Assembly: GCA_934486965.1 (NCBI GenBank)
Contig: CAKSQP010000001.1
Span: forward strand, 1 to 57,891
Direction: 5' to 3'
Length of the DNA: 57,891 nucleotides
Source: an uncultured Eubacteriales bacterium
GTDB lineage: Bacteria > Bacillota > Clostridia > Oscillospirales > UBA644
The position numbers and the translations under genes are program-made. Shown here one piece after another: positions 5,428 to 53,882 of the stretch. The notes under the pieces are model-generated. The model saw nothing but the letters and a program-made list of their open reading frames with translations. It was not told where the DNA came from and searched no databases. Each line of letters starts with the position of its first letter. The first letter of the stretch is position 1.

Positions 5428-6273
5428 ATGTCGTTTATCGAAGCAATAGTAATGGGAATCATTCAGGGAATCGCGGAATTTCTGCCGATATCCTCGTCGG
5501 GACATCTCGTCATCACCGAAAAACTCTTCAACTGGGGAGAAACACAGAGCGCCGACGTATTTTTCGATATGCTCCTGCACCTCGGAACTCTTATAGCGGT
5601 ATTTATAGTATTCCGCAAAACGATATGGGAACTCATAGTCTGTCTTTTCAAGACGATAGGTCAGATTTTCACGGGGAAATTTCATTTCAAAGATACGACC
5701 CCTATGCAGAAAATGATAGGCTTTCTTATCATTTCGATCCTGCCGCTTTTCGTAATATTCCCCTTTAAGGACGCGATAACCGACTTTTTCTATAATTCGC
5801 TCCTTGCCGTCGGCATTGCCCTTATAATAAACAGCGTCGTACTCTTTTTCTGCGACCGTTTCAAAGAAGGCAAAAAGACCGCGGGAAATATGAGAAAAAG
5901 AGACGCGCTCGTTATCGGTATCGCTCAGGCGATTGCCGTTATTCCGGGAATTTCGCGTTCCGGCTCGACGATAACCGCGGGGGTCGGAATGGGCGTACGC
6001 CGCAGCGAAGCCGCGGGATATTCCTTTATTCTTTCGATACCCACCATTCTCGCGGCGGTCCTTCTCGACATTCTCGACACCGTAAAGGCGGGAGAATTAA
6101 ACACCGCGCTTTTGCCGCAGTATCTCGTCGGATTTGTCGTCGCAGCAGTCGTAGGATTTTTGTCGATAAAACTTCTTCAGTATATTCTTAAATCGAAGAA
6201 ATTCGTTATATTCTCGGTATACTGCCTTATCGTCGGCGCAATAGTAACGGCTCTCGCAGTCGTAGGAATGTAA
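5428..6273 (+). CDS. uppP: Undecaprenyl-diphosphate phosphatase
   Basis: The 281-aa polytopic membrane ORF carries the N-terminal motif GIAEFLPISSSGHL and the later segment PGISRSGSTI. Confidence 0.92.
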   Translation: MSFIEAIVMGIIQGIAEFLPISSSGHLVITEKLFNWGETQSADVFFDMLLHLGTLIAVFIVFRKTIWELIVCLFKTIGQIFTGKFHFKDTTPMQKMIGFLIISILPLFVIFPFKDAITDFFYNSLLAVGIALIINSVVLFFCDRFKEGKKTAGNMRKRDALVIGIAQAIAVIPGISRSGSTITAGVGMGVRRSEAAGYSFILSIPTILAAVLLDILDTVKAGELNTALLPQYLVGFVVAAVVGFLSIKLLQYILKSKKFVIFSVYCLIVGAIVTALAVVGM

Positions 6274-10703: not shown

Positions 10704-11393
10704 ATGGAAAAAACAATCTTAATCGCCGACGACAACAAGGACATAGTTGATATATTGAAGATCTATGCCCAGAAGGAAGGCTACAAATATGTTTGTGCCT
10801 ACGACGGCGAACAGGCTCTCAAAATGTGGAAGGAGTACAATCCGTGTATCATTCTGCTCGACGTAATGATGCCGAAGATGAACGGATACGACGTCTGTAA
10901 ACAGATAAGACAGACCTCCAACGTTCCTATTATAATGGTCACCGCAAAGCAGGAAGAAGCGGACAAGATAATGGGTCTCGACTACGGCGCGGACGACTAT
11001 GTAATCAAACCGTTCAGCCCGAGAGAAGTCATGACCAGAGTCAAGGCGGTGCTCCGCAGAGTTACCGACGACGTCGTCGATGAGAAGAGCAAGAGAATAG
11101 AAATCGCGGGTCTCTGCATCGACATGAACAGTTACGAAGCGTCCGTCAACGGCAAACCCATCGTACTTACCAAAAAAGAAATTGAGATCCTCTGGCTCTT
11201 CGTCACGAACCCCGGCAGAGTTTTCACGAGAGACCATCTTCTCGAAAATATCTGGGGCTACGAATATTTCGGAGATACCCGTACCGTTGATACTCACATC
11301 AAGAGAATACGTACAAAACTCAACCTTGACAGCACCGTCGGTTTCGATATCAAGACCGTATGGGGCGTCGGCTATAAATTCGAGGTAAAATAA
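10704..11393 (+). CDS. OmpR-family response regulator
   Basis: The 229-aa ORF has a receiver domain (ILLDVMMPKMNG, TAK..., DDYVIKPF) and a winged-helix output domain (TVWGVGYKF). Confidence 0.9.
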   Translation: MEKTILIADDNKDIVDILKIYAQKEGYKYVCAYDGEQALKMWKEYNPCIILLDVMMPKMNGYDVCKQIRQTSNVPIIMVTAKQEEADKIMGLDYGADDYVIKPFSPREVMTRVKAVLRRVTDDVVDEKSKRIEIAGLCIDMNSYEASVNGKPIVLTKKEIEILWLFVTNPGRVFTRDHLLENIWGYEYFGDTRTVDTHIKRIRTKLNLDSTVGFDIKTVWGVGYKFEVK

Positions 11394-11396
11394 GAT

Positions 11397-13157
11397 ATGT
11401 TCAAGAGCATTACAGCCAAACTGACTTTGCTCTTTACCTGTCTTGCCGTTCTTATAGCCCTTATATCCGGACTTTCCTTTACCGCGCTTTACGGAAACCA
11501 CCTGCGCGAAGAGGAGAAAAAAGAAATGGAAAGCTGTGCGACGCAAGTTGCACAGCTTATTAAAAATGAGAACATGCTTGCGACCCTCGACCGCAAACTC
11601 CCGACGATAGGGTATATATCGCAGGCGACGGGCTATGATATATGGGTCTGCCATTCGACGGGTACGTTTTTCATAACGGGTTCGGCGACGAGCCCCTCAA
11701 GAACCGCGGACCTTTCGGGAAGCGCCGATTCCTTTGTAAAAGGAGTCCTTCAGGGATATTCCCGTATCGGCAACGATTTTTCGGACTATCTGAAGAGCGA
11801 CAGCCTTTCGGTCGGAGTTCCGATACTTTCACAGGCAAATTCCGACGGAAAGATCGCGGGTGCGGTGATCCTGCACGCGACCGAAAGCAGTTACGGCGCG
11901 TTTATCCGCACTTCGTGGCTGTATATCTTCGCAATGATAGTCGTTTCTCTGATTTTTTCGTTTGCAGTCGGTCTTATCTTCTCTTCGCAGTTTGTAAAAC
12001 CGCTTAAGGAAATTTCGACGGCGGCGGCGGAAATGTCGCACGGAAACTACGACGTCAGGGTCGGACACTTAAATCAGCCCGAACTCAATATGATAGGCGA
12101 CAGTATAAACAGCCTTGCCAGAACCACAAAAGACTCCGTTTCCGATATTTCGAACGAGACTGCGAAACTTTCGAACATAATCGAAAACATTTCGGACGGG
12201 CTCGCGGTCTACGACACAAACCTGAATCTCGTAAGATACAACGCCGCACTCCTGAATATCTGCGACGAAGACTATTTCCTGCGGGACGACGTAAGAAACG
12301 CGATGCTCGAAGTTATGGAGGACGGCAAAGCGCAGAACGTCACGATAGAGGTAAAGAACAAGATACTTTCTTTCACGATAACCCGGATAAAGAGCCTTGA
12401 AAAGGTCGAAGGAGTTATCGCCGTCGTAAGCGACATCACCGAAAGAGAAAGACTTGAACAGACAAGACGCGAATTCGTTTCGAACGTTTCGCACGAGTTC
12501 AGAACTCCGCTGACGATAATCAGAGGCGCGGTCGAACTCCTTATGGACGACGTTCTCGACAGCGAGGAAGCAAAAAAACAGTGCTATCAGAAGATAGACA
12601 CCGAATCGGCGGCGCTGACAAACCTTGTCAAAGACCTGCTCGACACCTCGCGTATGAAGTCGGGTAAAATAAAGATCGAACCGAGAGAAGTCGACCTCGA
12701 CGCTCTCGCGAAGACGATAACCGACAATATGCAGATGATCGCGTCAAACAAAAAGATAAGGATAAACTACGAGCCCGTAAGTATCCCGCCCGTCTGGGGC
12801 GACGAGGCAAGGCTCCGCCAACTTATGATAATCTTTATCGACAACGCGATAAAATTCACGCCCGAAAAAGGCACGATAACCGTTTCGATATATGCAAAAA
12901 ACAAAAAAGCGTATCTTTGCGTAAAGGATACCGGCTGCGGTATCCCGAAAGAAGATCAGCCGTATATTTTCGAAAGATTCTATAAGGTCGACAAAGCGCG
13001 CGGCGGCAGCGAAACGGGAACGGGCCTCGGACTTGCTATCGCATGGCAGATAGCGAAACTGCACAAGGGAACTATCCTTATCGAAAGCGAACCCGGTCAC
13101 GGCACGACTTTCAAAACGGTCCTTCCCCTCGCGGATAAAGAAGAGGACGAAGAATAA
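11397..13157 (+). CDS. Sensor histidine kinase (TM-HAMP-PAS-HisKA-HATPase)
   Basis: The 586-aa ORF has two transmembrane segments, the H-box SHEFRTPLT, and ATP-lid motifs DTGCGIP and GTGLGLAIA. It begins 3 nt after the response regulator gene. Confidence 0.9.
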   Translation: MFKSITAKLTLLFTCLAVLIALISGLSFTALYGNHLREEEKKEMESCATQVAQLIKNENMLATLDRKLPTIGYISQATGYDIWVCHSTGTFFITGSATSPSRTADLSGSADSFVKGVLQGYSRIGNDFSDYLKSDSLSVGVPILSQANSDGKIAGAVILHATESSYGAFIRTSWLYIFAMIVVSLIFSFAVGLIFSSQFVKPLKEISTAAAEMSHGNYDVRVGHLNQPELNMIGDSINSLARTTKDSVSDISNETAKLSNIIENISDGLAVYDTNLNLVRYNAALLNICDEDYFLRDDVRNAMLEVMEDGKAQNVTIEVKNKILSFTITRIKSLEKVEGVIAVVSDITERERLEQTRREFVSNVSHEFRTPLTIIRGAVELLMDDVLDSEEAKKQCYQKIDTESAALTNLVKDLLDTSRMKSGKIKIEPREVDLDALAKTITDNMQMIASNKKIRINYEPVSIPPVWGDEARLRQLMIIFIDNAIKFTPEKGTITVSIYAKNKKAYLCVKDTGCGIPKEDQPYIFERFYKVDKARGGSETGTGLGLAIAWQIAKLHKGTILIESEPGHGTTFKTVLPLADKEEDEE

Positions 13158-14110: not shown

Positions 14111-14261
14111 TCATGGCAAAACTTTGGCAACAGAAAAGCAATAAACCAAAATAAAAACAGCGTAAAATAACGGCAGATTTCAACAAAACAGTTTAAGTTA
14201 AAGCAACAACTTTCCTATTTGGACAACTCAATAAGCGGCTGCGAAATTTGCAGCCGCTTAT
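14111..14261 (+). ncRNA. Candidate ~150-nt A/C-rich small RNA, or alternatively a long 3' UTR of the ferredoxin gene
   Basis: A possible promoter reads TTGATT (14077-14082), 16 nt, TATACT (14099-14104), with TG at 14094-14095. The downstream sequence is ORF-free, A/C-rich and ends in the 12-bp-stem hairpin at 14231-14261. No homology evidence is available. Confidence 0.25.
14231..14261. terminator. Strong hairpin at the left border of the C-rich tract
   Basis: ATAAGCGGCTGC (14231-14242) pairs with GCAGCCGCTTAT (14250-14261) around the loop GAAATTT. The T-tail is only modest on either strand. Confidence 0.5.
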
Positions 14262-14854
14262 CTCATTTCCGTTTCCCGCCCCCGCTCGACGACCCTCCTA
14301 TCCGTCCCCTGCAATCCCGCACTTTTCCCCTTATCCGCAATTGCCCCGCAACTCTACCCCACCTTTGGCTTTTTTATCCGTCGCCCGCAACACGCCCGCC
14401 TTTCATTTTTCCGCTTTGTTATCCCCCATATCCGCAATCGCCCCGCAGAACTCTCCTTATACACGGAAATCTCCCGCAGTGTTCCCCTTTCAGAGCGCCC
14501 CTCGCGGCCTCCTCTCCGCAGCCCACGCGTTCCCCTTTCCGCAGCCCTCGTCGGTCCTCTCTCCGCAGCCCGCATCGTTCCTCTCTCCGCAGCCCGCATT
14601 CCCGCACTCTTTATTCCCACCTGTTCGCCCTTTCCCCTACCCGCAGAAACGCCGCCTCGACACACACCTCTCCGCCCTCGCAGGAAAAACAGAGTTCGGC
14701 TTTTCCTCGCAATCCCGCACTTTTCCCGAGGTCGGGAACCATGCATTTTATCTCCCCGACACGCTCCGCACCACTCCGACACCCGCAATTTCGCGTTTTT
14801 TATTTCGCCGACACCCGAATTTCCGAATATCCCCCCCGATATCGGCAAAAAGTC
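14262..14854. other. Non-coding polypyrimidine, C-rich and G-poor tract with reiterated CCGCA motifs; function unknown
   Basis: In 14281-14340 I count 30 C against 7 G. CCGCA occurs 18 times between 14316 and 14790. Repeat details are in the findings. There is no RBS-preceded ORF. Confidence 0.6.
14555..14602. repeat. 24-nt tandem duplication inside the C-rich tract
   Basis: TCCTCTCTCCGCAGCCCGCATCGT (14555-14578) is followed by TCCTCTCTCCGCAGCCCGCATTCC (14579-14602). The first 21 nt are identical. A degenerate third copy lies at about 14505-14530. Confidence 0.85.
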
Positions 14855-14895
14855 AACCCGACAGGAAAAATTTCTCCTGTCGGGTTGTTGTTTTA
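14855..14895. terminator. Bidirectional intrinsic terminator (3' end of the surface-protein gene and right border of the C-rich tract)
   Basis: A 12-bp stem pairs AACCCGACAGGA (14855-14866) with TCCTGTCGGGTT (14875-14886). T-runs follow on both strands (GTTGTTTTATT on plus, GACTTTTTG on minus). Confidence 0.8.
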
Positions 14896-17172
14896 TTCTT
14901 TATTGTCGGAAGTCGGTTCTTCCTCGGTTATGTTTTCCGCCGTATTTTCTTCGCCCTTTATTTCAGGGGGGTCTTTCGGAGAAACGGGAACTTCGGGTTT
15001 GTCTTCCGCACTGCCCGCCGAGGTTTCTTCGGTTTTTTCTTCCGAAGAGGCGGGAACGGCGGGTTTTTCTTCCGCAACGCCCGCATTTACCGCGGGGTCT
15101 TCGGATTTTTCTTCCTCAATGCCCGTCTCTGCCGCGGTTTCTTCGGGTTTTTCGTTCACACAGCCCGTTTCTGTCCCGTGAGCCTCGGTTTTCGCCGCCT
15201 TATTTTTCTTTTTCATGCAGAGAAGAATTACAAGCGCGGAGATTCCGCCGCCGACAAGAAACGCCGCTGCGGGGATTATAATATAAAGGACGTTGAATCC
15301 GCCTTTGCCGTCCTTCGGGAAATCGCGACTGCCGTCCGGAGCAAAGGAAGAAGCCGTCTCGCCCGTCGATCCTGTCGCGGTAAGCGTTTCACTGCCGTTT
15401 ACAAGGAGCGAATATTCGCCGTTTTCCGCAATGTCGGAAGAGGAAAAGAAGACAAAACTTACATTGCAGGGCGCTTCCTCGGAAAACAGAGTGTTGCCCG
15501 AATAGTCGGTAACCGACATTGTTTCGCCCTTTGAAACGCCTGCGTTCTGTCCGCCGTTTCCTCCGGGGAAAGTCGGAGCGCCGCCGTCGGTCGCGCCGTC
15601 GGGAAGAGCGGGAGCATTTCCGTCAGACGAGCCGTCGGGAGGGGTCATATTGCCGTCGGAGGGCTTTTGCATTCCGCCGTTGCCGCCCTGTACGCCGTTA
15701 TTTCCGCCCTGTGTTCCGCTGTTGCCGCCTTTTGCGGTCTCGGCAAAGCCGCTGTCGGAAAGCGCCGCGCCCGTGTTGCTCTCACCCGAAGTATTATCCG
15801 AAGAATTTCCGTTCATATCGGGCGGGGTCGGTGTGCCGTTGCCGCCCTGTGTTCCGTTGTTGCCGTTCTGGGCGCCGTCGGGAGGAGTCATATTGCCGTC
15901 GGAGGGCTTTTGTATTCCGCCGTTGCCGCCCTGCACGCTGTTGTTGCTGCCCTGTGTTCCGCCGTTGCCGTTCTGAATGCTGTCAGAGGAATTTCCGCTC
16001 ATGTCGGGCGGAGTCGGCATATTTCCGCCGTTCGGCTGCATTCCGCCGCCGAAACCTCCCATGCCGCCCGAATTTCCGAAAATCAGATATCCCTGCGACG
16101 ACGAAAGGTTCATTCCCATGCCGCTGCTGCCGCCTGCAGCAAGGACAGTGCCGCCCGAAACGGTGATTTTCCCGTCCGAGTCAAGAGGCTGGTCGTCGGC
16201 GGTGTTCGCGGTCCAGACGGTGACGTTTCCGTCCGAAATATCAATGGTTCCGTTCGAATCAAAACCGTCGCCGCCCGAAGAATATGCCCAAATTTTTCCG
16301 CCCGAAATGTTTATCGCAAAGGAATAGTCGGAAAGTTCTTTATTTGCGGCGTTTATGCAATCGTCGGACGAATATACCGTGATATTTCCCGAATAAATGT
16401 TGACGGTCGCCGCCTCAAGTCCCTCTTCGCTTTCGGAAACTTTTATTGTCGGACCGTCGGTGTTTTCCGCGCCGACGTTCATTACATAATCGCAGTGAAT
16501 CCCTTTATCCTCGGCGGAAACGGTGATATTTCCGCTCAAAATGTTAAGTTCCTGTTCGGCGTTTATCGCGTCGTTTACGGTCGCCGAAACATTCAAGGTA
16601 AGGTCCTTTATTGTAAGAGACGCGTCGCCGTTGTCGTCAGAAAGTCCCGATTTTATGCCGTTTTTGCCGCTTGCGGCGACCGTAAGCGTGCCGCCGCCGC
16701 ACAAAACGACCTTTGAACCGTCCTTACATTTAATGACCGCGTTTTCGGCATTTTCGTTATCGGGATAGTTTTCGTCGTTGTTTTTTTCGGTGTCGGAAAG
16801 GAAGTTTTCGGTCCCCGCTGCCGCAATCACCGTAACTTCCGTGCCTTTTTTGCAGATTATTGCGGCGCTGTCTTCCGATTTAAGGGTGAGCCCCGACAGA
16901 ACTATCGTTACTCCCGTCGTTCCTTTATCGACGGTCACGCTGCCCGTTCCGCTGCCGGATAATATATAGGTACCCGACTTCGTTATTGTGATATTTGAGC
17001 CGTCAGACGAGCACCCGTCCCCCGAGACCGAAACGCCGTTTTCGGAAAATACGGCGGCCGTCGCCCCCTCTGCCGAATATTCCGCCGCAGAAAAAGAAAC
17101 GGGGAACAGTGTAAATAAGAATAGCGCCGCGACGATAAGTGCCGACAGGCGTAATTTTTTCGTTCTTTTCAT
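14893..17172 (-). CDS. Membrane-anchored surface protein with a Cthe_2159-like beta-helix carbohydrate-binding domain, a G/N/P-rich repeat linker, a C-terminal TM helix and an acidic tail
   Basis: The signal peptide is MKRTKKLRLSALIVAALFLFTLFPVSFSA. The segment ITITKSGTYILSGSGTGSVTVDKGTTGVTIVLSGLTL... is typical of the PF14262 'carbohydrate-binding domain-containing protein' family (my recollection). The TM helix is IIIPAAAFLVGGGISALVILLC. I chose the second ATG (17172) because of its spacing from the AAAGGA RBS. Confidence 0.8.
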   Translation of the reverse strand: MKRTKKLRLSALIVAALFLFTLFPVSFSAAEYSAEGATAAVFSENGVSVSGDGCSSDGSNITITKSGTYILSGSGTGSVTVDKGTTGVTIVLSGLTLKSEDSAAIICKKGTEVTVIAAAGTENFLSDTEKNNDENYPDNENAENAVIKCKDGSKVVLCGGGTLTVAASGKNGIKSGLSDDNGDASLTIKDLTLNVSATVNDAINAEQELNILSGNITVSAEDKGIHCDYVMNVGAENTDGPTIKVSESEEGLEAATVNIYSGNITVYSSDDCINAANKELSDYSFAINISGGKIWAYSSGGDGFDSNGTIDISDGNVTVWTANTADDQPLDSDGKITVSGGTVLAAGGSSGMGMNLSSSQGYLIFGNSGGMGGFGGGMQPNGGNMPTPPDMSGNSSDSIQNGNGGTQGSNNSVQGGNGGIQKPSDGNMTPPDGAQNGNNGTQGGNGTPTPPDMNGNSSDNTSGESNTGAALSDSGFAETAKGGNSGTQGGNNGVQGGNGGMQKPSDGNMTPPDGSSDGNAPALPDGATDGGAPTFPGGNGGQNAGVSKGETMSVTDYSGNTLFSEEAPCNVSFVFFSSSDIAENGEYSLLVNGSETLTATGSTGETASSFAPDGSRDFPKDGKGGFNVLYIIIPAAAFLVGGGISALVILLCMKKKNKAAKTEAHGTETGCVNEKPEETAAETGIEEEKSEDPAVNAGVAEEKPAVPASSEEKTEETSAGSAEDKPEVPVSPKDPPEIKGEENTAENITEEEPTSDNKE
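15631..15973 (-). repeat. In-frame ~100-bp direct repeat (period 243 bp, 81 codons) within the surface-protein gene
   Basis: Segments 15631-15730 and 15874-15973 are about 90% identical (GCCGTCGGGAGG(G/A)GTCATATTGCCGTCGGAGGGCTTTTG(C/T)ATTCCGCCGTTGCCGCCCTG...). They encode the repeated QGGNGG(I/M)QKPSDGNMTPPDG units. Confidence 0.85.
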
Positions 17173-17256
17173 AAATATCATTCCTTTCGCGTCGGTCTTT
17201 CCCGACTTCTGCGAAAAGTATAGCGCCCGAACCTTAAACGAACTTAAAGGAAAATC

Positions 17257-17276
17257 TTTAGGTTCGGTTTAGGTTC
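17257..17276 (+). promoter_or_regulatory. Direct repeat TTTAGGTTC-N2-TTTAGGTTC (11-bp period); candidate OmpR-family response-regulator binding site
   Basis: Exact 9-mers lie at 17257-17265 and 17268-17276, about 35 nt upstream of the VTC-like gene. An inverted, near-identical copy GAACCTTAAA lies at 17229-17238. Confidence 0.4.
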
Positions 17277-17310
17277 ACGGTTTATTATGTTTGCAGGAGG
17301 CGAGAGAAAA

Positions 17311-18033
17311 ATGATTCAGACTTCTTTCAAAAGATATGAAAAGAAATATAAAATCACCGCAAAGCAGAAAGAACTTTTGCTTGAAGAAATGAAAAAGTAT
17401 ATGCGCGAAGACGATTACGGAAAATATTCGCTCTGCAACATATATTACGACACCCCCGACATGAGACTTATAAGAACGTCCCTCGAAAAACCGATATATA
17501 AGGAAAAACTTCGGGTGAGAAGTTACGGAGTTCCGCGTCTCGGCGAAAAAGTTTTCGTTGAAATAAAGAAAAAATACGACGGGATAGTTTATAAAAGAAG
17601 AATTTCGGCAATGCCCGCGGAGGCGGCGGTCCTGCTTTCGGGGAACCTTTCGGGCGAACATTTCGGACAGATAGGAAAAGAAATTTCGGCGTTTCAGCAG
17701 TTTTACAGGACCGAACCGAAAGTATTTATAGGATACGACCGAGAGGCTTATGCAGGGATTTCCGACCCCGATTTGCGGATAACTTTCGACAGCAATATGC
17801 GTTACCGCACCGACAGGCTCGACCTGCGTTACGGAGATCACGGGAAATATTTTTTCGACGGCGACTACCTCTGCGAAATAAAATTTGCTGCCGCCTGTCC
17901 CCTGTGGCTTTCGGAATTCCTTTCCGAAAACGAAATTTTTCCGACGTCCTTTTCGAAATACGGAACGGTATACCGCGAAGAAATTTCGAAAGGCGAAAAC
18001 GAAACCGAAAAGGAGGGCATTTTCTGTGCTTGA
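17311..18033 (+). CDS. VTC-domain (triphosphate-tunnel, polyphosphate-polymerase-like) protein
   Basis: The start MIQTSFKRYEKKYKIT... is preceded by an AGGAGG RBS. The K/R/E-rich beta-strand pattern (RYEKKY, EKLRVRSYG, VFVEIKKKYDGIVYKRR, LCEIKF) is typical of bacterial PF09359 'polyphosphate polymerase domain-containing proteins'. Confidence 0.75.
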   Translation: MIQTSFKRYEKKYKITAKQKELLLEEMKKYMREDDYGKYSLCNIYYDTPDMRLIRTSLEKPIYKEKLRVRSYGVPRLGEKVFVEIKKKYDGIVYKRRISAMPAEAAVLLSGNLSGEHFGQIGKEISAFQQFYRTEPKVFIGYDREAYAGISDPDLRITFDSNMRYRTDRLDLRYGDHGKYFFDGDYLCEIKFAAACPLWLSEFLSENEIFPTSFSKYGTVYREEISKGENETEKEGIFCA

Positions 18034-18682
18034 TTCAATAATAGGAACGGAACTCACCGTTGAAACTTTTATAATCTGTACTTTGGTATCTCTCGTTTTG
18101 GGCGTGCTTATCTCGGTCGTCAGTATGTATAAAACGCGGTCGTCGCAGAGCTTTGCGATAACCCTTGCAATTTTACCCGCGGTCGTCCAGATAATCATAA
18201 TGCTCGTAAACGGAAACATCGGAGCGGGCGTTGCGGTCGCAGGGGCTTTCAGTCTTGTCCGCTTCCGTTCGGCTCCCGGCTCGGCAAAGGAAATCGGCTC
18301 GATTTTCCTTGCAATGGCTGTGGGACTTGCAACCGGGATGGGCTATGTTTTCCTTGCGGCGATAATGTTTTTGCTTGTTTCGGCGGTTATTATAATCCTT
18401 ACCGCGACGGGCTTCGGCGGAAGAAAAACCGAGAAGATGTTGAAGATAACAATTCCGGAAAATCTCGATTACGAAGGGCTTTTCGACGATCTTTTCGAAA
18501 AATATACCCTTTCGCACGAACTTGTAAAGGTCAAAACTTCGAATATGGGAACGCTTTACGAACTCGAATATATTATAACCCTCAAAGGCACCGTTCCGAA
18601 AAGTTTTATCGACGACATTCGCTGTCGGAACGGAAACCTTAATATCGTCTGCGGCAGAACGGGCGAAAAAGAGGCTTTATAG
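18026..18682 (+). CDS. DUF4956-family membrane protein (usual partner of bacterial VTC-domain proteins)
   Basis: A GTG start at 18026 follows an AAGGAGGG RBS and overlaps the VTC gene stop by 8 nt. The protein has four predicted TM helices (e.g. FAITLAILPAVVQIIIMLV, IFLAMAVGLATGMGYVFLAAIMF) and a soluble C-terminal domain. Confidence 0.7.
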   Translation: MLDSIIGTELTVETFIICTLVSLVLGVLISVVSMYKTRSSQSFAITLAILPAVVQIIIMLVNGNIGAGVAVAGAFSLVRFRSAPGSAKEIGSIFLAMAVGLATGMGYVFLAAIMFLLVSAVIIILTATGFGGRKTEKMLKITIPENLDYEGLFDDLFEKYTLSHELVKVKTSNMGTLYELEYIITLKGTVPKSFIDDIRCRNGNLNIVCGRTGEKEAL

Positions 18683-18683
18683 A

Positions 18684-18712
18684 TTGACTTTACCGCAAAT
18701 TTTAAGTATACT
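18684..18712 (+). promoter_or_regulatory. Sigma-A-type promoter for the second RR/HK pair
   Basis: TTGACT (18684-18689), 17 nt, TATACT (18707-18712). Confidence 0.55.
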
Positions 18713-18732
18713 GTTATCGGCAGGTGATAAAA

Positions 18733-19407
18733 ATGCGTTTGCTTATCGCAGAAGACGAAAAGGACCTTGCGGAGGCGCTTACCGTCTTTTTTGAAAAAAA
18801 CAATTTCTCGGCGGACGCCGTTTACGACGGGCAGGACGCCTACGACTACGCAATTTCGGGCGGCTATGACGCGATAATCCTCGACATTATGATGCCGAAG
18901 ATGAACGGACTTGAAGTCCTCGGGAAATTACGCCGCGAGGGGATAAAAACTCCCGTCATGATGCTGACGGCAAAGGGTCAGACTTATGACAGGATAGCGG
19001 GATTTGACGCGGGCGCGGACGACTATCTTCCGAAACCGTTCGAACCCGACGAACTCATAAGCCGCGTTCGGGCAATGCTCCGCCGGAGCGAAGATTACCG
19101 CCCGACAGTCCTTAATTTTGCGGATATCTCCCTTGATTCGGGGTCGGGTCTTCTTTCCTGCGGGAATAAGACCGTCCGTCTTTCGGGCAGGGAATTTCAA
19201 CTTGCCGAAATGTTTATCCGCTCCCCCGGTTTCGTTTTTTCCGCCGACAGGATAATGGAAAAGATATGGGGCTGGGAAAGCGACGCCGAGATAAACGTCG
19301 TTTGGGTCCACATCTCGAACCTGCGCAAAAAATTAAAACAGATAGGCTCAAAAGTCTCAATTCAGGCAAACAGAGGCCTCGGATATTATATGGAGGCTGA
19401 AAAATGA
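18733..19407 (+). CDS. OmpR-family response regulator
   Basis: MRLLIAEDEKDLAEAL..., receiver motifs ILDIMMPKMNG and DDYLPKPF, and a winged-helix C-terminus (ANRGLGYYM). Confidence 0.9.
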   Translation: MRLLIAEDEKDLAEALTVFFEKNNFSADAVYDGQDAYDYAISGGYDAIILDIMMPKMNGLEVLGKLRREGIKTPVMMLTAKGQTYDRIAGFDAGADDYLPKPFEPDELISRVRAMLRRSEDYRPTVLNFADISLDSGSGLLSCGNKTVRLSGREFQLAEMFIRSPGFVFSADRIMEKIWGWESDAEINVVWVHISNLRKKLKQIGSKVSIQANRGLGYYMEAEK

Positions 19408-20672
19408 TAAAAAAACTGCGCCTGCGCTTTATAAATATAGCGACTCTTTCGGTCGCGGCGGTAATGCTCCTGCTTGCCGTCGCGGTCAATGCCGCGTCCT
19501 TTTATTCCGCGAATTCCGACCTTGACAAAACGATAAACCTTATTTACGAAAACGACGGAACTGTTCCCGAAAACAAGGTCGTACCGCCGAAAGACGACAT
19601 CGGAACTCCGCCGCCCGACAAAAAAGATCCGCACGAAGAGAGAGGAAACGGTCCTTTCACCGCCGAAACGCCCTATTCGACGAGATTTTTCGTTCTGAAA
19701 TGCGACGAAAACGGAAACCTTGTTTCGTCAAATTTCGACAAGATAGCGTCGGTCACCGAAAACGACACCTCCGAATTTCTCGCGGCGGCATTGAAAAAAG
19801 GACACGGATACGGTTTTTACGGCAACTATAAATTTTTCGTTTCCGACCCCGAAAACGGCGAAAAAACGATAATCTTCCTTGACTGTTACCGCGAACTGCG
19901 CTCCGCAAAAACTTTGATTATATGGTCGGCGGTCGCGGTCGTGGGCTGTACGTTGCTCGTTTTCCTGCTTGTCGTTTTCTTCTCGAAAAAAGCGGTCGAA
20001 CCCGTCGCGGAAAGTTACGAAAAGCAAAAACGTTTCATCACCGACGCAAGCCATGAATTAAAGACGCCGATAACGGTCATCGCGACAAGTCTGCGCGTTC
20101 TCGAAATGGAAACGGGCAAACAGAAATGGATAGACAAAGCCAAAAGCCAGACCGAGAAACTTACCGAACTTGTAAATTCGCTCGTTTCGCTTTCGCGTCT
20201 CGACGAAGAAAAGTCGCCCCTTAAATTTTCGGGATTCAACATAAGCGACGCGGTAAACGAGACCGCCGAATCATTTTCCGATTTCGCCGCGTCAAACGGC
20301 AAAACGCTTGAAATTTCGGTCGAACCCGACATAACTTATAACGGAAACGAATACGCCGTCCGCCAACTCGTTTCAATACTTATCGACAACGCGGTAAAAT
20401 ATGCCGACCCGTCGTCGCCTATCCTTGTTTCTCTTAAAAAATCAAAGAAAAAGATAATAATAAAAACGGAAAACGCCTGCGCCGAACCGATAAAAGGCGA
20501 TCTTTCAAAACTTTTCGACAGGTTTTACCGCGCGGACGAAAGCCGAAATTCGGAAACGGGCGGTTTCGGGATAGGTCTTTCGCTCGCAAAAAGCATTGCG
20601 GAGGGACACGGCGGCAAAATTTCGGCGTCTTCCCCCGAAGCAAACAAAATAGAATTTACCGTCACTCTTTAA
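19404..20672 (+). CDS. Sensor histidine kinase (2 TM, extracytoplasmic loop, HisKA-HATPase)
   Basis: The 422-aa ORF has the H-box SHELKTPIT, the G-box GGFGIGLSLAKSIAEGHGG, and an ATGA overlap with the response regulator stop. Confidence 0.9.
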   Translation: MIKKLRLRFINIATLSVAAVMLLLAVAVNAASFYSANSDLDKTINLIYENDGTVPENKVVPPKDDIGTPPPDKKDPHEERGNGPFTAETPYSTRFFVLKCDENGNLVSSNFDKIASVTENDTSEFLAAALKKGHGYGFYGNYKFFVSDPENGEKTIIFLDCYRELRSAKTLIIWSAVAVVGCTLLVFLLVVFFSKKAVEPVAESYEKQKRFITDASHELKTPITVIATSLRVLEMETGKQKWIDKAKSQTEKLTELVNSLVSLSRLDEEKSPLKFSGFNISDAVNETAESFSDFAASNGKTLEISVEPDITYNGNEYAVRQLVSILIDNAVKYADPSSPILVSLKKSKKKIIIKTENACAEPIKGDLSKLFDRFYRADESRNSETGGFGIGLSLAKSIAEGHGGKISASSPEANKIEFTVTL

Positions 20673-20691
20673 GACTGCCTCAGGAGGCTAT

Positions 20692-21270
20692 ATGATTTTT
20701 AAGATATCCGCACTCATTCTTCTCGCCGCTTTTTATGCCTGCTACTTTATAAAGATGTTCGGGCAAAGAAAAAAAGGGATAAAAACCTCGCAGATAGGCA
20801 AAGGCAAAACTGGAAAAACCCGAACGGTAGAATATCTGATGTCCGTTTCGACGGTCCTTGCCGTCATAGCCGAAGTTGCAAGCATTATTGTCGGAACGAC
20901 CGTTTTTCCGCTCTTTTTGCGGATAATCGGGCTTGCTATCACGGCGGCGGGAGTTGCCGTCTTTATCGCGGCGGTCGTAACGATGAGGGACAGTTGGAGA
21001 GTCGGTGTTCCCGAAGAAAAGAAAACGGCTATTGTCACAACGGGAATTTTTTCCGTAAGCCGCAACCCCGCGTTTCTCGGTTTCGACCTCGTTTATCTCG
21101 GAATCCTTCTGATGTTTTTCAATCCGTTTCTCCTGCTCTTTTCTGTGTTTTCGGCGGTAATGCTTCATTTGCAGACCGTTGTTGTCGAAGAACCGTTTCT
21201 TCGCGAGGCGTTCGGAAAAGAGTATGAAAATTATACAAAAAATGTCTGCCGCTACCTCGGAAAAAAATAA
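20692..21270 (+). CDS. Isoprenylcysteine carboxyl methyltransferase (ICMT/PEMT)-family membrane methyltransferase
   Basis: The 192-aa polytopic ORF has an AGGAGG RBS. The segment TTGIFSVSRNPAFLGFDLVYLG...EEPFLREAFGKEYENY is typical of the ICMT family. Confidence 0.75.
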   Translation: MIFKISALILLAAFYACYFIKMFGQRKKGIKTSQIGKGKTGKTRTVEYLMSVSTVLAVIAEVASIIVGTTVFPLFLRIIGLAITAAGVAVFIAAVVTMRDSWRVGVPEEKKTAIVTTGIFSVSRNPAFLGFDLVYLGILLMFFNPFLLLFSVFSAVMLHLQTVVVEEPFLREAFGKEYENYTKNVCRYLGKK

Positions 21271-21298: not shown

Positions 21299-21327
21299 TT
21301 GACAAAGCGAAAAAAGAGGTATATAAT
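21299..21327 (+). promoter_or_regulatory. Consensus sigma-A promoter for the leader and ABC-importer operon
   Basis: TTGACA (21299-21304), exactly 17 nt, TATAAT (21322-21327). Confidence 0.7.
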
Positions 21328-43378: not shown

Positions 43379-44344
43379 TTATTTGTTTTCTTCGTTTAAG
43401 TCTTCTCCGTTGAGTTTCGCGGAGGTTTCTTCCTTTTTGAGTCTTTCCATTTTCTGGATCTGGTTATAGTTCAGTTTCTTTTCTTTTACCGGCTTTTCTG
43501 GAACTTTTTCTTTAATAAGTTTTGCAAGAAGCACGGTCTGGAGTATTGTGAGAAGGTTGGTGAATATCCAGTAAATACAAATACCTATCTGGAACGAATA
43601 GCCGAGAAAAAGGGTGATGACCGGCATAATATAGAGCATTGCGTTCATGCCGGGGTTTTTCGCCGCCGAATCCGTCTGATTTATTTTCTGGGAAACTATC
43701 GTTACGGCAAGAGAAGAAAGCGCCGCGAGTATCGGCAGGATAACGGTTATCGTCCATGCAAACTGCGGGGTATCGCCGAGGTTGAGTCCGAGAAAATTAA
43801 GGTTTATTCCCTTATATCCGGTTTCCGCGATAACACCCGACAAAGCGTCGGAATTTGCGTTTATATCCTTTATAAGGGTAAGTTGGTTTACGGTCTGATA
43901 GGTTATCTTGTCGCCGTAGGATATTCCGAGATTTGTTACGGCGTTGAAGAGTTTTTCGATGTTTGCCGCCGACATATCGAGAAGATAGGTAAGGGGCTGG
44001 CGGATATTTGTCCAGAGAGAAAGGATAAGGGGAAGCTGGATAAGCTGCGGAAGACAGCCTGAAGTCGGGCTGTAACCCTCTTCGGTATATATCCTCTGCA
44101 TTTCTTCCTGATATTTCGGATCTCTGGTGTTGTTTTTGTATTTCTGCTGAAGTTGCTGGATCCGCGGCTGAGCCTTCATCATCTTTCTTCTGCCCTTTTC
44201 GGCTTTTATTCCGAGCGGCAAAAGACAGATTTTCGTGACAAGCGCGAAAAGCAGGATAGCCACGCCGTAGTTCTGCACCAAAGCGTAGCAAAGTCTCAGT
44301 ATCATACCGATAGGTACGTTTATAATATCGAAAATACCGTTCAT
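43379..44344 (-). CDS. yidC: Membrane protein insertase YidC/SpoIIIJ
   Basis: The 321-aa polytopic ORF has the segments MMKAQPRIQQLQQKYK and GCLPQLIQLPL, and sits in the conserved rnpA-yidD-yidC-jag order. Confidence 0.9.
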   Translation of the reverse strand: MNGIFDIINVPIGMILRLCYALVQNYGVAILLFALVTKICLLPLGIKAEKGRRKMMKAQPRIQQLQQKYKNNTRDPKYQEEMQRIYTEEGYSPTSGCLPQLIQLPLILSLWTNIRQPLTYLLDMSAANIEKLFNAVTNLGISYGDKITYQTVNQLTLIKDINANSDALSGVIAETGYKGINLNFLGLNLGDTPQFAWTITVILPILAALSSLAVTIVSQKINQTDSAAKNPGMNAMLYIMPVITLFLGYSFQIGICIYWIFTNLLTILQTVLLAKLIKEKVPEKPVKEKKLNYNQIQKMERLKKEETSAKLNGEDLNEENK

Positions 44345-44354
44345 TTCTTTTCCT

Positions 44355-44564
44355 TTACTTTAACGGATCGTATCCGCCCTTACTGAAAGGGTTGCATCTT
44401 AAAATCCGCCAAACGGCAAGACGCGTGCCTTTGAAAAATCCGTATTTTTCGTATGCCTCAAGGGCATATTCGGAGCAGGTGGGAACATATTTACAGCAGG
44501 GTCTTCTGTACGGAGAAATGTGTTTTCTGTAAAAACGAATAAGCCATATCGCGACTTTTTTCAT
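44355..44564 (-). CDS. yidD: Membrane protein insertion efficiency factor YidD
   Basis: The 69-aa ORF contains [14 protein letters not shown]. Confidence 0.92.
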
Positions 44565-44567
44565 TTT

Positions 44568-44912
44568 TCAATCCTCTTTTATAAGATCTTCCCTGCCGAA
44601 AGCATACTTCATATCCCTGACGATATCCTCTGTTTTGAGAAAAGGCGTTTTCGATTTCGACGCAATGACGAAATCATATCCCGTTTTCAAAGCAGGCTCG
44701 CACAGTCTGTACGCTTCCCTGATTATTCTTTTTGCCCGATTTCTTTTTACCGCGTTTCCCACCGATTTTTTTCCGACGGTAATCCCGAGCCTGTTTTCTT
44801 CCGACTTATTCGGTTTATAATACAGCACAAAAGAGCCGGTCACCCGACAATTTCCTTTTCTGTAAAGCTGTAAAAACCTTCTGTTGTCGCAAAGTGAAAC
44901 AGTCTTTCTCAT
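44568..44912 (-). CDS. rnpA: Ribonuclease P protein component
   Basis: The 114-aa basic ORF contains KSVGNAVKRNRAKRIIREAYR and lies downstream of rpmH. Confidence 0.92.
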   Translation of the reverse strand: MRKTVSLCDNRRFLQLYRKGNCRVTGSFVLYYKPNKSEENRLGITVGKKSVGNAVKRNRAKRIIREAYRLCEPALKTGYDFVIASKSKTPFLKTEDIVRDMKYAFGREDLIKED

Positions 44913-44918
44913 ATTGAA

Positions 44919-45053
44919 TTACAGAGAAAGCTGTTTTCTTCCTTTAGCGCGTCTTCTCGCAAGAACCTTTCTTCCGTTAGCGGTCTTCATTCTCTTTCTG
45001 AAGCCGTGTTCCTTGCTGCGCTGTCTTTTTTTAGGCTGATAAGTTCTGAGCAT
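44919..45053 (-). CDS. rpmH: 50S ribosomal protein L34
   Basis: The last 44 aa of the 349-aa track ORF read [44 protein letters not shown], preceded by a GGAGGGA RBS. The rest of that ORF is antisense to dnaA. Confidence 0.95.
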
Positions 45054-45158
45054 TTTATTCCCTCCTTTACAGAGAACAGTCCTTTTTACATTATACATTC
45101 TTAAAATGCCCGTGTCAAGTGAAAAAATCAAATTTTTTTCAAACTTTGAAAGCCGTAC

Positions 45159-45187
45159 TTGCCTAAATTTCGTTTTTATGCTATAAT
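45159..45187 (+). promoter_or_regulatory. dnaA promoter (extended -10)
   Basis: TTGCCT (45159-45164), 17 nt ending in TGC, TATAAT (45182-45187). Confidence 0.6.
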
Positions 45188-45227
45188 ACATTAGATATAT
45201 ATAATATATAAGTGAAAGGAAATTAAA

Positions 45228-46550
45228 ATGTCGGGCCAGATTGATATAATATGGAAAGCGGCGGCGGCTGAAATAAAAGCGAAAGTTTCTTCGACTTCCT
45301 ACGAGATATTCTTCAGAGACTTGAAACCCCTGCGCATAGACGAAAACATGAAACTTGTCCTGCAGGCTCAGAATACCGTTCAGAAAAACTTTCTCGAACT
45401 GAAATTCAGAAACGAAATAAAAGAGGCTCTTTCCGACGTATACGGCTTTGACGCGGATTTCGTCATAGTCTGCGAAGACGAAAACAAGACGGAAACGGAA
45501 ATAAAGAAAGAACCCGTTTTCAAGAAAACGTCCGATTCGGATTTTTATACTTTCGAAAACTTTATGGTCGGCGAAAGCAATAAATACGCCTATACGGTCT
45601 GTCGCGCGGTCGCCGAAAACCCCGGAACCGCATACAACCCGCTGTTTCTTCACGGAAGCACGGGTCTCGGTAAAACACATCTTCTGAAAGCGATAAAAAA
45701 TCAGATAGAAAAAGACCACCCGGATTATACCTGCTACTATCTGAGCAGTGAAAGTTATACGACCGAATTCATCGAAAGTCTGCGTACAAAGACAACTCAC
45801 GAATTCAAAAACAAATACAGGAACGCCGACGTCCTTCTTTTGGACGACGTTCAGTTCTTTGCGGGAAAAGAATCGACGCAGGAGGAGTTTTTCCACACAT
45901 ATAACTACCTCAAAGAGGGAAACAAGCAGATAATCTTGGCGTCGGACAGACCCCCGAAAGACATTCACCCTCTTGAAGAAAGACTTTGCGGAAGATTTGA
46001 GTCGGGCGCACTGATGTCAATTGAGTCTCCCGAACTCGAACTGAGAGTCGCAATAGTAAAAAACAAGGCGAAATACTATAACGTCAACATTTCCGACGAA
46101 GTGGCATACTTCATTGCGGAGACCATAAAAAACAACATAAGAAAAATAGAAGGCGTTATAAACAAAACAAAAGCCGATCAGTTTATAAAAGGGACCGCTC
46201 CGACCGTTTCTTCGGTAAAAAGCATTATAAGGGATATTTCGGAAGAAAACGAACCTCTTCCCGTTCTTGTCGACAAGATAGTGACCGAAGTCGCCCGTAT
46301 CTATAACGTCAAACCCGAAGACATAAAAAGCAAAAAGCGGCAGATGAACATTAAAAACGCCCGCCATGTCTCGATTTACATAATAAGGGAAATGACTTCC
46401 ATTTCTCTCAAGGATATAGGAACTTACTTTTCGAATCTCGACCATTCGTCGGTTCACCACGCATATAACACCGTCGCCGAAAAAACGGACACCGATTCGA
46501 CTTTCAGAGTTCATATCGAAGAGATAATGAGAAATATAAGGGAACAGTAA
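45228..46550 (+). CDS. dnaA: Chromosomal replication initiator protein DnaA
   Basis: The 440-aa ORF has Walker [12 protein letters not shown], the segment [13 protein letters not shown], and the C-terminal DNA-binding helix [10 protein letters not shown]. Confidence 0.97.
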
Positions 46551-46817
46551 GTTTTCCGAAAGTTATCAAAACGGTTTCCACAGTTTTCAACGCGGAACAC
46601 TGAATTTTTTCAACAAAGTTTTCAAAAAGCGGCGGTTGAAAAAATGTTGAAAAGATTTTCTCGGTTTTCAAAAAATTTTCAACAGGTTTTCCAATTTCAG
46701 AAAAATACGTTTTTTACCTTACCGAAAGGATAAAAACGGGTTTTCAAAAGTTTTTACACTCCCTATTACTTCTATAAAAATAATATATATTATATATACA
46801 CAGAAAGGTGAACTGTC
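46551..46817. other. oriC (dnaA-dnaN intergenic): cluster of DnaA-box-like repeats plus an AT-rich unwinding element
   Basis: At least 9 copies of (G)TTTTCAA(C/A)A occur in both orientations (e.g. 46583-46591, 46607-46615, 46618-46627, 46635-46644 rc, 46645-46654 rc). There is also TTATCAAAA (46563-46571) and GTTTCCACA (46574-46582). The AT-rich stretch ATAAAAATAATATATATTATATATA lies at about 46773-46798. Gene strand switches at rpmH/dnaA. Confidence 0.8.
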
Positions 46818-47924: not shown

Positions 47925-47925
47925 T

Positions 47926-49011: not shown

Positions 49012-49277
49012 TGTATCTTCATATCGGTCTTAACTACATGATAAAAAAGAGCGACATTGTCGGAATATTCGATATAGAAACGACGACGGGTTCTACTATA
49101 ACGAAGCAGTTTCTGATGAAAGCGCAGAAGAAAAACAGAGTAATAACCGTAACTCCCGACCTGCCGAGATCTTATATCGTCTGTCGGGACGGCGAAAAAG
49201 AGTATGTTTATCTTACTTCTCTTTCGACGGCGACTTTGATAAAAAGAAACGAATCAAAAGAAAACATATTCATATAG
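49011..49277 (+). CDS. DUF370 protein (RemB/YaaB-like)
   Basis: The 88-aa ORF starts MYLHIGLNYMIKKSDIVGIFDIE and lies between recF and gyrB, as in other Firmicutes. It has a TAATG overlap with recF. Confidence 0.8.
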   Translation: MYLHIGLNYMIKKSDIVGIFDIETTTGSTITKQFLMKAQKKNRVITVTPDLPRSYIVCRDGEKEYVYLTSLSTATLIKRNESKENIFI

Positions 49278-51251
<1,974 letters not shown>

Positions 51252-51263
51252 GGAGGTAACATT

Positions 51264-53849: not shown

Positions 53850-53882
53850 TATATAAACCAACAAAAAAAGGAATGACAAAAG

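Follow-up and report, generated by a model that had tools for sequence, protein, structure and literature searches.

The 57,891-nucleotide stretch analysed here (hereafter the window; contig CAKSQP010000001.1 of assembly GCA_934486965.1, from an uncultured Eubacteriales bacterium of the Oscillospirales lineage UBA644) carries a divergently arranged gene module. The best explanation for it, at a probability that we put at about 45%, is a system induced by a two-component pair that synthesizes polyphosphate (polyP) and delivers it to the cell envelope. The conserved core of the module is five genes, encoding a Cthe_2159-family beta-helix protein, a VTC-domain protein, a DUF4956 membrane protein, a response regulator and a histidine kinase. 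We are highly confident that the module is conserved and co-regulated.

In the scheme that we favor, the kinase would sense an extracytoplasmic signal and act with its OmpR/PhoB-type regulator to induce both divergent promoters, the DNA sites being tandem TTTARG boxes, in two inverted pairs, that stand in for −35 elements. One promoter would drive the surface-tethered, very acidic beta-helix protein, and the other the Vtc4-type enzyme, the coupled DUF4956 protein and the two-component system itself, the last as positive feedback. The Vtc4-like enzyme would polymerize the gamma-phosphate of nucleoside triphosphates (NTPs) into polyP at the membrane; DUF4956 would dock the enzyme and pass or hand the chain to the outer face, and the beta-helix protein would engage the polymer outside, probably with divalent cations as the bridge. 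The role of the beta-helix protein would fall, in other lineages, to a secreted CotH kinase or to a metallo-beta-lactamase (MBL)-fold lipoprotein.

An open reading frame (ORF) map and a Pfam scan of the window confirmed six genes at the coordinates, and in the families (VTC, DUF4956, Cthe_2159, response regulator and kinase, ICMT), proposed in a first-pass annotation made from the sequence alone (Table 1), and the gene calls agree on identical metagenome contigs. Finer points of that annotation held as well: the 8-nt overlap of VTC and DUF4956 is real (GTG at 18026, VTC stop at 18031–18033), the gap between the kinase and the ICMT-like gene is 19 nt, and the beta-helix protein runs for 759 amino acids (aa) from MKRTKK, with a signal peptide and a C-terminal transmembrane (TM) segment. 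Automated calls put the VTC start at an ATG at 17287 (248 aa), within the −10/leader region; the start is likely the ATG at 17311 (240 aa), which is supported by a GGAGG at 17299 and by the N-termini of homologs. The response regulator probably starts at the ATG at 18733 (224 aa).

The conservation of this gene set was assessed by scanning one genome per species for relatives of the VTC protein. At least 543 species had a match. The 80 best loci, most of them of gut or rumen origin, were retained, and their ORFs were called and clustered; they represent Oscillospiraceae, Lachnospiraceae, Ruminococcus and other Clostridia. VTC is present in 80/80 loci and DUF4956 lies directly downstream of it in 74–75 of the 80, most of the remainder being at contig ends; the Cthe_2159 cluster is found in 58, the kinase in 46 and the regulator in 40. 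Where flanks are complete (40 loci), DUF4956 follows VTC in 39, Cthe_2159 is nearby in 32, and the kinase and a co-located response regulator are each found in 24. Three unrelated flanking contexts (L003, L006 and L009; ~60% VTC identity) keep Cthe_2159 divergent from VTC-DUF4956-regulator-kinase. Elsewhere gene order is shuffled: the beta-helix gene is either divergent upstream or co-directional downstream, and the two-component system is either downstream or divergent upstream of VTC. All five genes also occur in Paenibacillus cellulosilyticus, at 40% identity, with kinase-regulator divergent from VTC-DUF4956-Cthe_2159. Acetoanaerobium has regulator-kinase-VTC-DUF4956 and then a cardiolipin-synthase-like protein; at this locus (L093, 8495–12891) the latter is a phospholipase D protein, and a P-type cation ATPase also lies after VTC-DUF4956.

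Persistence of a gene set through rearrangement is a classical sign of functional linkage. One might still suppose that the adjacency is meaningless, a product of chance or of shared ancestry in one lineage, and the sixth gene of the window, the ICMT-like gene, is indeed such a lineage-specific neighbor. However, the five-gene set persists through rearrangements and amid unrelated flanks in Oscillospiraceae, Lachnospiraceae, Peptostreptococcales and Paenibacillus, and a shared operator precedes the module genes. These neighborhood and operator statistics effectively refute a chance origin, to which we assign a negligible probability.

The association is strong from the VTC side and not exclusive from the Cthe_2159 side, from which two close homologs were sampled: one, in L097, is taken up below, and the other, in L098, sits among paralogs beside a module. 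At L098 (4214–9417) two Cthe_2159 paralogs and an unannotated 584-aa protein are followed by an MgtE Mg2+ channel. An Acetivibrio metagenome-assembled genome (L076) has the module, with a beta-helix protein that is only a distant relative of the Clostridium thermocellum structure 4PEU. A plasmid collection gave four matches, three of them on megabase-sized records; none had annotation beneath the match, and ORFs were called anew.

The ICMT-like gene is a bona fide family member by Pfam (PEMT, E 2e-12, 47.9 bits against a cut-off of 25; ICMT, E 1.4e-7, 32.3 bits against 24), and the first-pass annotation had counted it among the genes of the module. Co-conservation was borne out for VTC, DUF4956, Cthe_2159 and the two-component system, all of which recur in the 80-locus survey, but not for this gene: among 91 loci a homolog occurs only in the same-species contigs L001 and L002, and it is absent from L003, L006 and L009. 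Being confined to the species of the window, it was rejected as a module member and is a lineage-specific passenger. In L002 its stop codon reads TTA instead of TAA, giving a 238-aa read-through, and the L001 gene call is only 117 aa. The gene also has a weak, sub-threshold NCBIfam match to LmtA, a lipid A 1-phosphate O-methyltransferase (E 5e-10), a reminder that the ICMT/PEMT family can methylate phosphate groups.

The second line of evidence for a module is its operator. The first-pass annotation had proposed a single divergent control region, and the 138 bp between the two transcription units do contain two inverted pairs of tandem boxes, GAACCTTAAAC-GAACTTAAAG and CTTTAGGTTCGG-TTTAGGTTC, one pair toward the beta-helix gene and the other toward the VTC operon. 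Hexamers resembling −10 elements lie about 7–8 nt outward of the box pairs (TATACT on the left, TATTAT on the right), and on the right TATTAT is followed by a GGAGG ribosome-binding site and the ATG at 17311. The pattern TTTARG-N4-5-TTTARG has two matches in the window, against 0.18 expected, and both are in the divergent promoter. Across the 80 species loci (1.16 Mb) the pattern is matched 54 times where about 3.6 would be expected, and 49 of these matches face the start of a VTC, Cthe_2159 or regulator gene. All 18 loci that share the divergent layout have boxes in both orientations. Where the layout differs, and in Paenibacillus, VTC is preceded by tandem boxes of a related kind, and one clade uses a TTTCGT variant.

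This shared operator places the beta-helix gene and the VTC operon in one regulon, and the presence of the regulator and kinase genes within the controlled operon implies positive feedback. The regulon may reach further still. The Cthe_2159 paralog in L097, 62% identical in the beta-helix, lies far from VTC genes and beside GH94/GH18 genes, and its start codon is preceded (5945–6001) by tandem TTTAAG/TTTAGG boxes, a TATACT −10 element and a Shine-Dalgarno sequence, which suggests that the regulon extends beyond the linked genes.

The four boxes are presumed to be bound by the OmpR/PhoB-family regulator of the module. A consensus promoter-like sequence between the DUF4956 and response-regulator genes may provide basal expression of the two-component system. 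In the kinase, two TM segments flank an extracytoplasmic domain of ~140 aa and are followed by HisKA-HATPase. The arrangement of the boxes recalls class II activation at pho boxes, in that tandem direct repeats with a 10–11 bp period replace the −35 element just upstream of the −10, and PhoB systems likewise carry the regulator genes inside a controlled operon. The differences lie in the box itself (TTTARG-N4-5-TTTARG), in the two inverted pairs that serve divergent promoters, and in the proteins: in NCBIfam both regulator and kinase fall below every equivalog cut-off, with only generic matches for the kinase (PhoB 176 against 296.2 bits and PhoR 137 against 334.2; the best matches, RppA and RppB, are also below their cut-offs). 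A PhoPR identity was for this reason not adopted.

Table 1. Positions of the module's genes and control sites in the window, and of MBL-fold partner genes at related loci.
Feature	Position	Strand	Remarks
Bidirectional terminator-like hairpin	14854..14887	both	13-15 bp stem, T-runs on both strands
Cthe_2159 beta-helix gene	14893..17172 (Pfam-scanned ORF 14893-17181)	-	PF14262, E 9e-43
Left box pair GAACCTTAAAC GAACTTAAAG	17229..17249	-	TTTAAG-N4-TTTAAG; pattern match 17233-17248; toward beta-helix gene
Right box pair CTTTAGGTTCGGTTTAGGTTC	17256..17276	+	Pattern match 17257-17273; toward VTC operon
VTC gene	17311..18033 (Pfam-scanned ORF 17287-18033)	+	PF09359, E 5e-39; 240 aa
DUF4956 gene	18026..18682	+	PF16316, E 4e-16; 218 aa
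Promoter-like site TTGACT-17-TATACT	18684..18712	+	Consensus match only; between DUF4956 and response-regulator gene
OmpR/PhoB-family response regulator	18733..19407 (ORF 18724-19407)	+	Response_reg and Trans_reg_C
Histidine kinase	19404..20672	+	HisKA and HATPase_c; 4-nt overlap with regulator gene
ICMT/PEMT-family membrane methyltransferase	20692..21270	+	Pfam PEMT / ICMT / DUF1295
MBL-fold lipoprotein genes	L036 3663-4553; L040 11351-12283; L054 11383-12222; L056 4458-5312

The proposed product of the module rests on its VTC protein. This scores 134.6 bits against PF09359 (cut-off 23 bits), covers positions 1–230 of the 235 in the profile, and is a bare 240-aa tunnel domain: VTC is the only domain found, with no SPX domain and no hydrophobic or TM segment. 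A single-sequence phmmer search of the PDB gave no match, and short N- and C-terminal profiles did not retrieve Vtc4 from it; a profile of 30 homologs retrieves yeast Vtc4 with an E value of 5e-7. The AlphaFold2 (AF2) model (pLDDT 80.8, pTM 0.79) has Vtc4 chains as its best Foldseek matches (3G3R, 5IIQ, 8I6V and 7YTJ; E 4e-13 to 2e-11, TM score 0.64–0.72, the best of them at E 4e-13 and 0.68–0.72), with Vtc3/Vtc2 ranking next and then CYTH-type enzymes (E 1e-8).

In Vtc4, the triphosphate is held by K200, R264, R266, K281, Y359, R361, S457 and K458, and Mn2+ by E426, and mutants show that polyP synthesis depends on those that bind the triphosphate (preprint 10.1101/2023.01.27.525886). With the Vtc4 sequence and numbering checked against 3G3Q/8I6V and aligned with the VTC protein by hhalign and hidden Markov model, eight of these correspond to R68 (R264), R70 (R266), K86 (K281), Y142 (Y359), R144 (R361), E189 (E426), S215 (S457) and K216 (K458). 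K200 corresponds to K12 by motif inspection (FxRxExKY against FVRQTTKYW), in a segment that the alignment tools left unaligned. All nine equivalents being present, the catalytic tunnel residues are intact, and they are kept in 77–80 of the 80 species. K216 is Lys in 80/80; its Vtc4 counterpart, K458, is the single residue that differs in the inactive Vtc2 and Vtc3, where it is Ile or Leu (10.1101/2023.01.27.525886). The protein is thus a putative polyphosphate polymerase with the Vtc4-type triphosphate-tunnel fold, and we consider it probable that it is active as one.

A different reading of the same fold is that the enzyme is not a polymerase at all, and hydrolyzes or transfers from a triphosphate (tripolyphosphate, an NTP, or a triphosphorylated lipid or glycan) or makes a small signal for the ACT-like domain of DUF4956, so that the VTC label would reflect fold ancestry only. 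There is precedent for this, as AtTTM3 shares the Vtc4 tunnel arrangement yet is a tripolyphosphatase, and tunnel metalloenzymes with near-identical tunnel centers differ greatly in activity (PMC4641920). The CYTH-type enzymes are also significant structural matches, and an invariant Glu10 occupies one acidic-patch position of the hydrolases. Against it, Vtc4 is clearly the best match by both sequence profile and structure, and the equivalent of the polymerase-specific Lys458 is invariant. In addition, R8 and K191 are basic, matching R196 and K428 of Vtc4, where AtTTM3 has Glu2 and Glu171 (the R8 pairing is by motif inspection only). On balance a non-polymerase enzyme seems improbable.

DUF4956, the membrane partner, scores 59.7–60.6 bits against PF16316 (cut-off 30.6 bits) and is better conserved than VTC, with homolog identities of 70–75% against about 60%. 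Among the 43 loci at which the DUF4956 start can be fixed, 38 have an overlap with VTC of exactly 8 nt, and this overlap with the VTC stop implies translational coupling. The first-pass annotation had described a protein with four TM helices. A membrane protein it is, but AF2 predicts 4–5 helices (12–37, 41–62, 65–76, 87–104 and 108–127) and, in addition, a C-terminal beta-alpha-beta-beta-alpha-beta domain, predicted to be cytosolic and ferredoxin-like or ACT-like, all in a poor model (pLDDT 64). Invariant residues are N62, N64, R79, R81 and S82 (the LVRFRS motif) in the membrane part and an RCRNGNLN motif in the soluble domain.

A Foldseek search of the PDB, including 7YTJ and 8I6V, with this low-confidence model gave no match at E <= 0.001, and a DUF4956 profile found none among PDB sequences. 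The weak Foldseek matches are ferredoxin-like and ACT folds, among them the MgtC C-terminal domain 2LQJ (E 0.08). In size and layout DUF4956 resembles proteins of the MgtC/SapB/YhiD group, which likewise have several TM helices at the N-terminus and then, on the cytosolic side, an ACT-like beta-alpha-beta-beta-alpha-beta domain, and one database source labels a homolog YhiD; however, its Pfam MgtC (PF02308) score falls well short of the threshold (10.4 bits against 31.4, E 0.85), and the 2LQJ match is weak. A streptococcal DUF4956 homolog has been described as an MgtC TM domain plus ACT (PMC12345266). Judged from the model, DUF4956 looks not to be a Vtc1 homolog structurally, and with a low-confidence model and only weak MgtC/ACT resemblances to go on, the channel role put forward in the first-pass annotation is conjecture.

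The main indirect argument that the product of the VTC-DUF4956 pair acts outside the membrane comes from the proteins that recurrently join it. In the window this is the beta-helix protein (PF14262, 146.8 bits against 25.8; PDB 4PEU, Cthe_2159, E 4.4e-12), which consists of a signal peptide (1–29), an acidic beta-helix (about 55–350), a Gly/Asn/Ser/Pro-rich linker (356–560), a small conserved domain (about 550–615), a TM anchor (627–652) and an acidic Glu/Pro cytoplasmic tail. The beta-helix domains of orthologs are 60–65% identical. Partners in other species are usually lipoproteins with a lipobox and are sometimes anchored by S-layer homology (SLH) or TM segments. They are always acidic: the net charge of the beta-helix domain is −29 in the window, with a median of −34 over 57 proteins. 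Binding of a polyanion by such a domain would need bridging cations.

The first-pass annotation had also named CotH kinases as frequent neighbors. This is true of published loci (PMC7112168, PMC2879425, PMC12345266), but in our survey CotH occurs at only one of the 80 species loci, and the window has no CotH-like ORF anywhere. At that locus (L064, 7609–9957) the CotH gene directly precedes VTC in the same orientation, and its product combines lamin-tail, CHB_HEX_C and CotH domains with a signal peptide. Through this gene the clade surveyed here is linked to the published CotH-VTC-DUF4956 clusters. In four further species the place right behind DUF4956, often that of the beta-helix gene, is taken by a gene for an MBL-fold (Lactamase_B) lipoprotein (Table 1). 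The MBL fold includes phosphodiesterases, and these lipoproteins could therefore be product-trimming enzymes. Every recurrent third partner, whether Cthe_2159, CotH or MBL-fold, carries an export signal. It is this joining of three unrelated folds, all extracytoplasmic, to one gene pair that points to a product acting outside.

Cthe_2159 of C. thermocellum has been described, according to a summary in PMC6712302, as binding cellulose and the polyanion polygalacturonate. The domain in the window belongs to the same family (PF14262) but differs from the founding protein in its tether to the membrane or wall, its strong acidity and a control that it shares with a polyP-polymerase-like operon. Both the CotH and the Cthe_2159 Pfam domains are found in anaerobic gut fungi and are lacking in other chytrid fungi, and transfer from Clostridiales has been supported for Cthe_2159; this co-presence hints, if loosely, at travel of the two in a shared niche.

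Export of polyP to the surface is a tentative proposition, with the odds somewhat against it, and several observations weigh against the module as a synthesis and delivery system. DUF4956 has no significant structural match, the VTC membrane domain included (with the pLDDT 64 model), and its weak resemblances point to MgtC. MgtC is a regulatory protein (ATP synthase, phosphate signaling) rather than a channel or polymerase partner. Since polyP in the cytosol is tolerated by bacteria, there is no a priori need to translocate it. The strong acidity of the beta-helix argues against direct binding of a polyanion. Cthe_2159 is missing from 8 and the two-component system from 16 of the 40 loci with full flanks, and the close Cthe_2159 homolog in L097 sits away from any VTC gene. 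Glu10, invariant in the bacterial enzyme, stands at the position of Vtc4 Thr198, which in hydrolytic tunnel enzymes is a metal-binding Glu (PMC4641920), leaving room for hydrolase chemistry. Deletion of a VTC homolog in Streptococcus intermedius gave no aggregation phenotype (PMC12345266). Finally, neither biochemistry nor genetics in the searchable literature shows a bacterial VTC/DUF4956 pair to make or export polyP, in keeping with the statement in the first-pass annotation that no such pair was known to have been characterized biochemically.

In the main rival explanation, polyP is made in the cytoplasm and stays there as a phosphate, cation or energy buffer. DUF4956 would then be an MgtC-like anchor or allosteric regulator, its ACT-like domain sensing a metabolite or the protein modulating ATP/phosphate flux, and the beta-helix protein would merely be co-regulated, as one more product of a shared stress regulon such as a response of the cation, phosphate or cell-wall type. 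This accommodates the intact catalytic residues of VTC as well as the likeness of DUF4956 to MgtC plus an ACT domain rather than to a known channel, a likeness seen also in PMC12345266. Unlinked Cthe_2159 paralogs with boxes fit a regulon rather than a machine, and an MgtE Mg2+ channel or P-type cation ATPase adjoins some loci. The authors of the S. intermedius preprint likewise proposed cytoplasmic polyP. What it leaves unexplained is why VTC-DUF4956 is joined repeatedly to exported proteins of three unrelated folds, and why a soluble polymerase should have an obligate, translationally coupled membrane partner (39/40 loci). We consider cytoplasmic retention unlikely, and prefer synthesis coupled to envelope delivery.

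Clusters related to the module have been noted before. VTC-DUF4956-CotH synteny was reported in NELoc-2 of Clostridium perfringens (PMC2879425) and beside Gram-positive pel operons (PMC7112168), the latter in the form cotH-polyP-polymerase-DUF4956(-DUF4832). Like the module, these clusters place a VTC-DUF4956 pair beside an exported third protein and are biochemically uncharacterized; in S. intermedius, deletions of the DUF4956 homolog and of CotH altered Pel levels and aggregation, a surface-polymer phenotype, in a study without biochemistry (PMC12345266). They differ in that their partner is CotH, whereas here it is a Cthe_2159 beta-helix, and in that the module is without pel or glycosyltransferase genes and has a dedicated regulator/kinase pair and a conserved four-box operator. 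For the variant with Cthe_2159 and a two-component system, and for its operator, no description was found in the searchable literature.

The closest functional parallel would be the VTC complex of yeast and protists, with which the module shares the triphosphate-tunnel fold, all nine triphosphate and Mn2+ residues, and the obligate pairing of the enzyme with an integral membrane protein. Its construction is otherwise different. Eukaryotic Vtc4 has an SPX sensor and a fused 3-TM domain, whereas the bacterial enzyme is a free soluble domain with neither, and has an invariant Glu in place of Thr198. The eukaryotic membrane partner is a Vtc1-type channel with rings of basic residues, while DUF4956 belongs to another family with no detectable similarity to it. 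Control is by inositol pyrophosphate and SPX in the one case and by a two-component system in the other, and the target, the vacuole in eukaryotes, would here be the cell exterior. The polyphosphate kinases PPK1 and PPK2 are likewise credited with making polyP from NTP, as we propose for the module, but their folds and mechanisms are unrelated, and they are without a dedicated membrane protein or exported partners.

Reviews treat Vtc4-type polymerases as eukaryotic and attribute bacterial polyP to PPK1 and PPK2 (PMC12526157, PMC10657179). What would be new here is Vtc4-type chemistry in a bacterial system that is differently built and differently regulated. If the Vtc4-like enzyme works, it would be a new class of polyP synthase for bacteria; if it is coupled to DUF4956 for export, the pair would be the first bacterial polyP translocase; and if DUF4956 indeed conducts the chain, they would form a synthase-translocase analogous to the eukaryotic VTC complex but differently built. 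One can go further and propose a third, PPK-independent polyP route in gut and rumen Clostridia, some Bacilli and other Firmicutes. There, a Vtc4-type polymerase docked on a chain-conducting DUF4956 and induced by a two-component system would feed interchangeable surface proteins (Cthe_2159 beta-helix, secreted CotH kinase, MBL hydrolase) that bind polyP, trim it, or draw on it outside the cell for phosphoryl groups or energy. Such a general scheme is doubtful as it stands.

Exported polyP would be a source of high-energy phosphate outside the cell, and could explain how secreted CotH kinases act where ATP is absent. The Cthe_2159 proteins would be reassigned from "carbohydrate-binding" toward a phosphate- or cation-linked role in the envelope. 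Extracellular polyP has been reported, in the title of a reference cited in PMC12345266, as a signal that aids bacterial survival in eukaryotic cells. The VTC family is large, with 8,042 clusters at an E value cut-off of 0.001 and, for clusters at 50% identity, 4,479 at a cut-off of 1e-10. Its size and uncharacterized state make it attractive for experiment, and the system offers the experimenter two handles, a conserved operator and a dedicated sensor.

As for the wider context, the window spans a chromosomal origin region (43379–54000), with rnpA, yidD, yidC, jag and mnmE on one side and dnaA (45228–46550), dnaN, recF, a remA-like gene, gyrB and gyrA on the other, the dnaA-gyrA set lying at about 45–54 kb. 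A gene for SpoIIID is also present on the extended source contig. Together these genes point away from a mobile element and to the chromosome of a spore-forming member of the Clostridia. The 57.9 kb yielded neither an Rfam family nor a tRNA. Membership in an anti-phage defense system was considered and rejected, since PADLOC models gave zero matches at E <= 0.01 for the four non-regulatory proteins of the module.

On its left the module ends at the terminator-like hairpin, 6 nt downstream of the beta-helix gene. Between this hairpin and a flavodoxin/4Fe-4S gene lies a tract of ~600 nt without a plausible ORF (14240–14850) that is strongly C-rich on the plus strand, with about 20 CCGCA(G/A/C) motifs, four tandem 24-nt units (14505–14599) and dispersed copies of TCCCGCACTTTTCCCC, and has no Rfam match. 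A second OmpR-type two-component system, in whose kinase Pfam detects HAMP weakly and PAS_4 faintly, lies at 10704–13157, 4 kb upstream of the module; the flavodoxin/4Fe-4S gene separates the two, and no link between them was seen. On the right, just past the ICMT-like gene, a perfect sigma-70 consensus promoter (TTGACA-17-TATAAT, 21299–21327) precedes a transporter operon (ABC_sub_bind/BPD_transp_2/ABC_tran) and delimits the module's transcription unit on this side.

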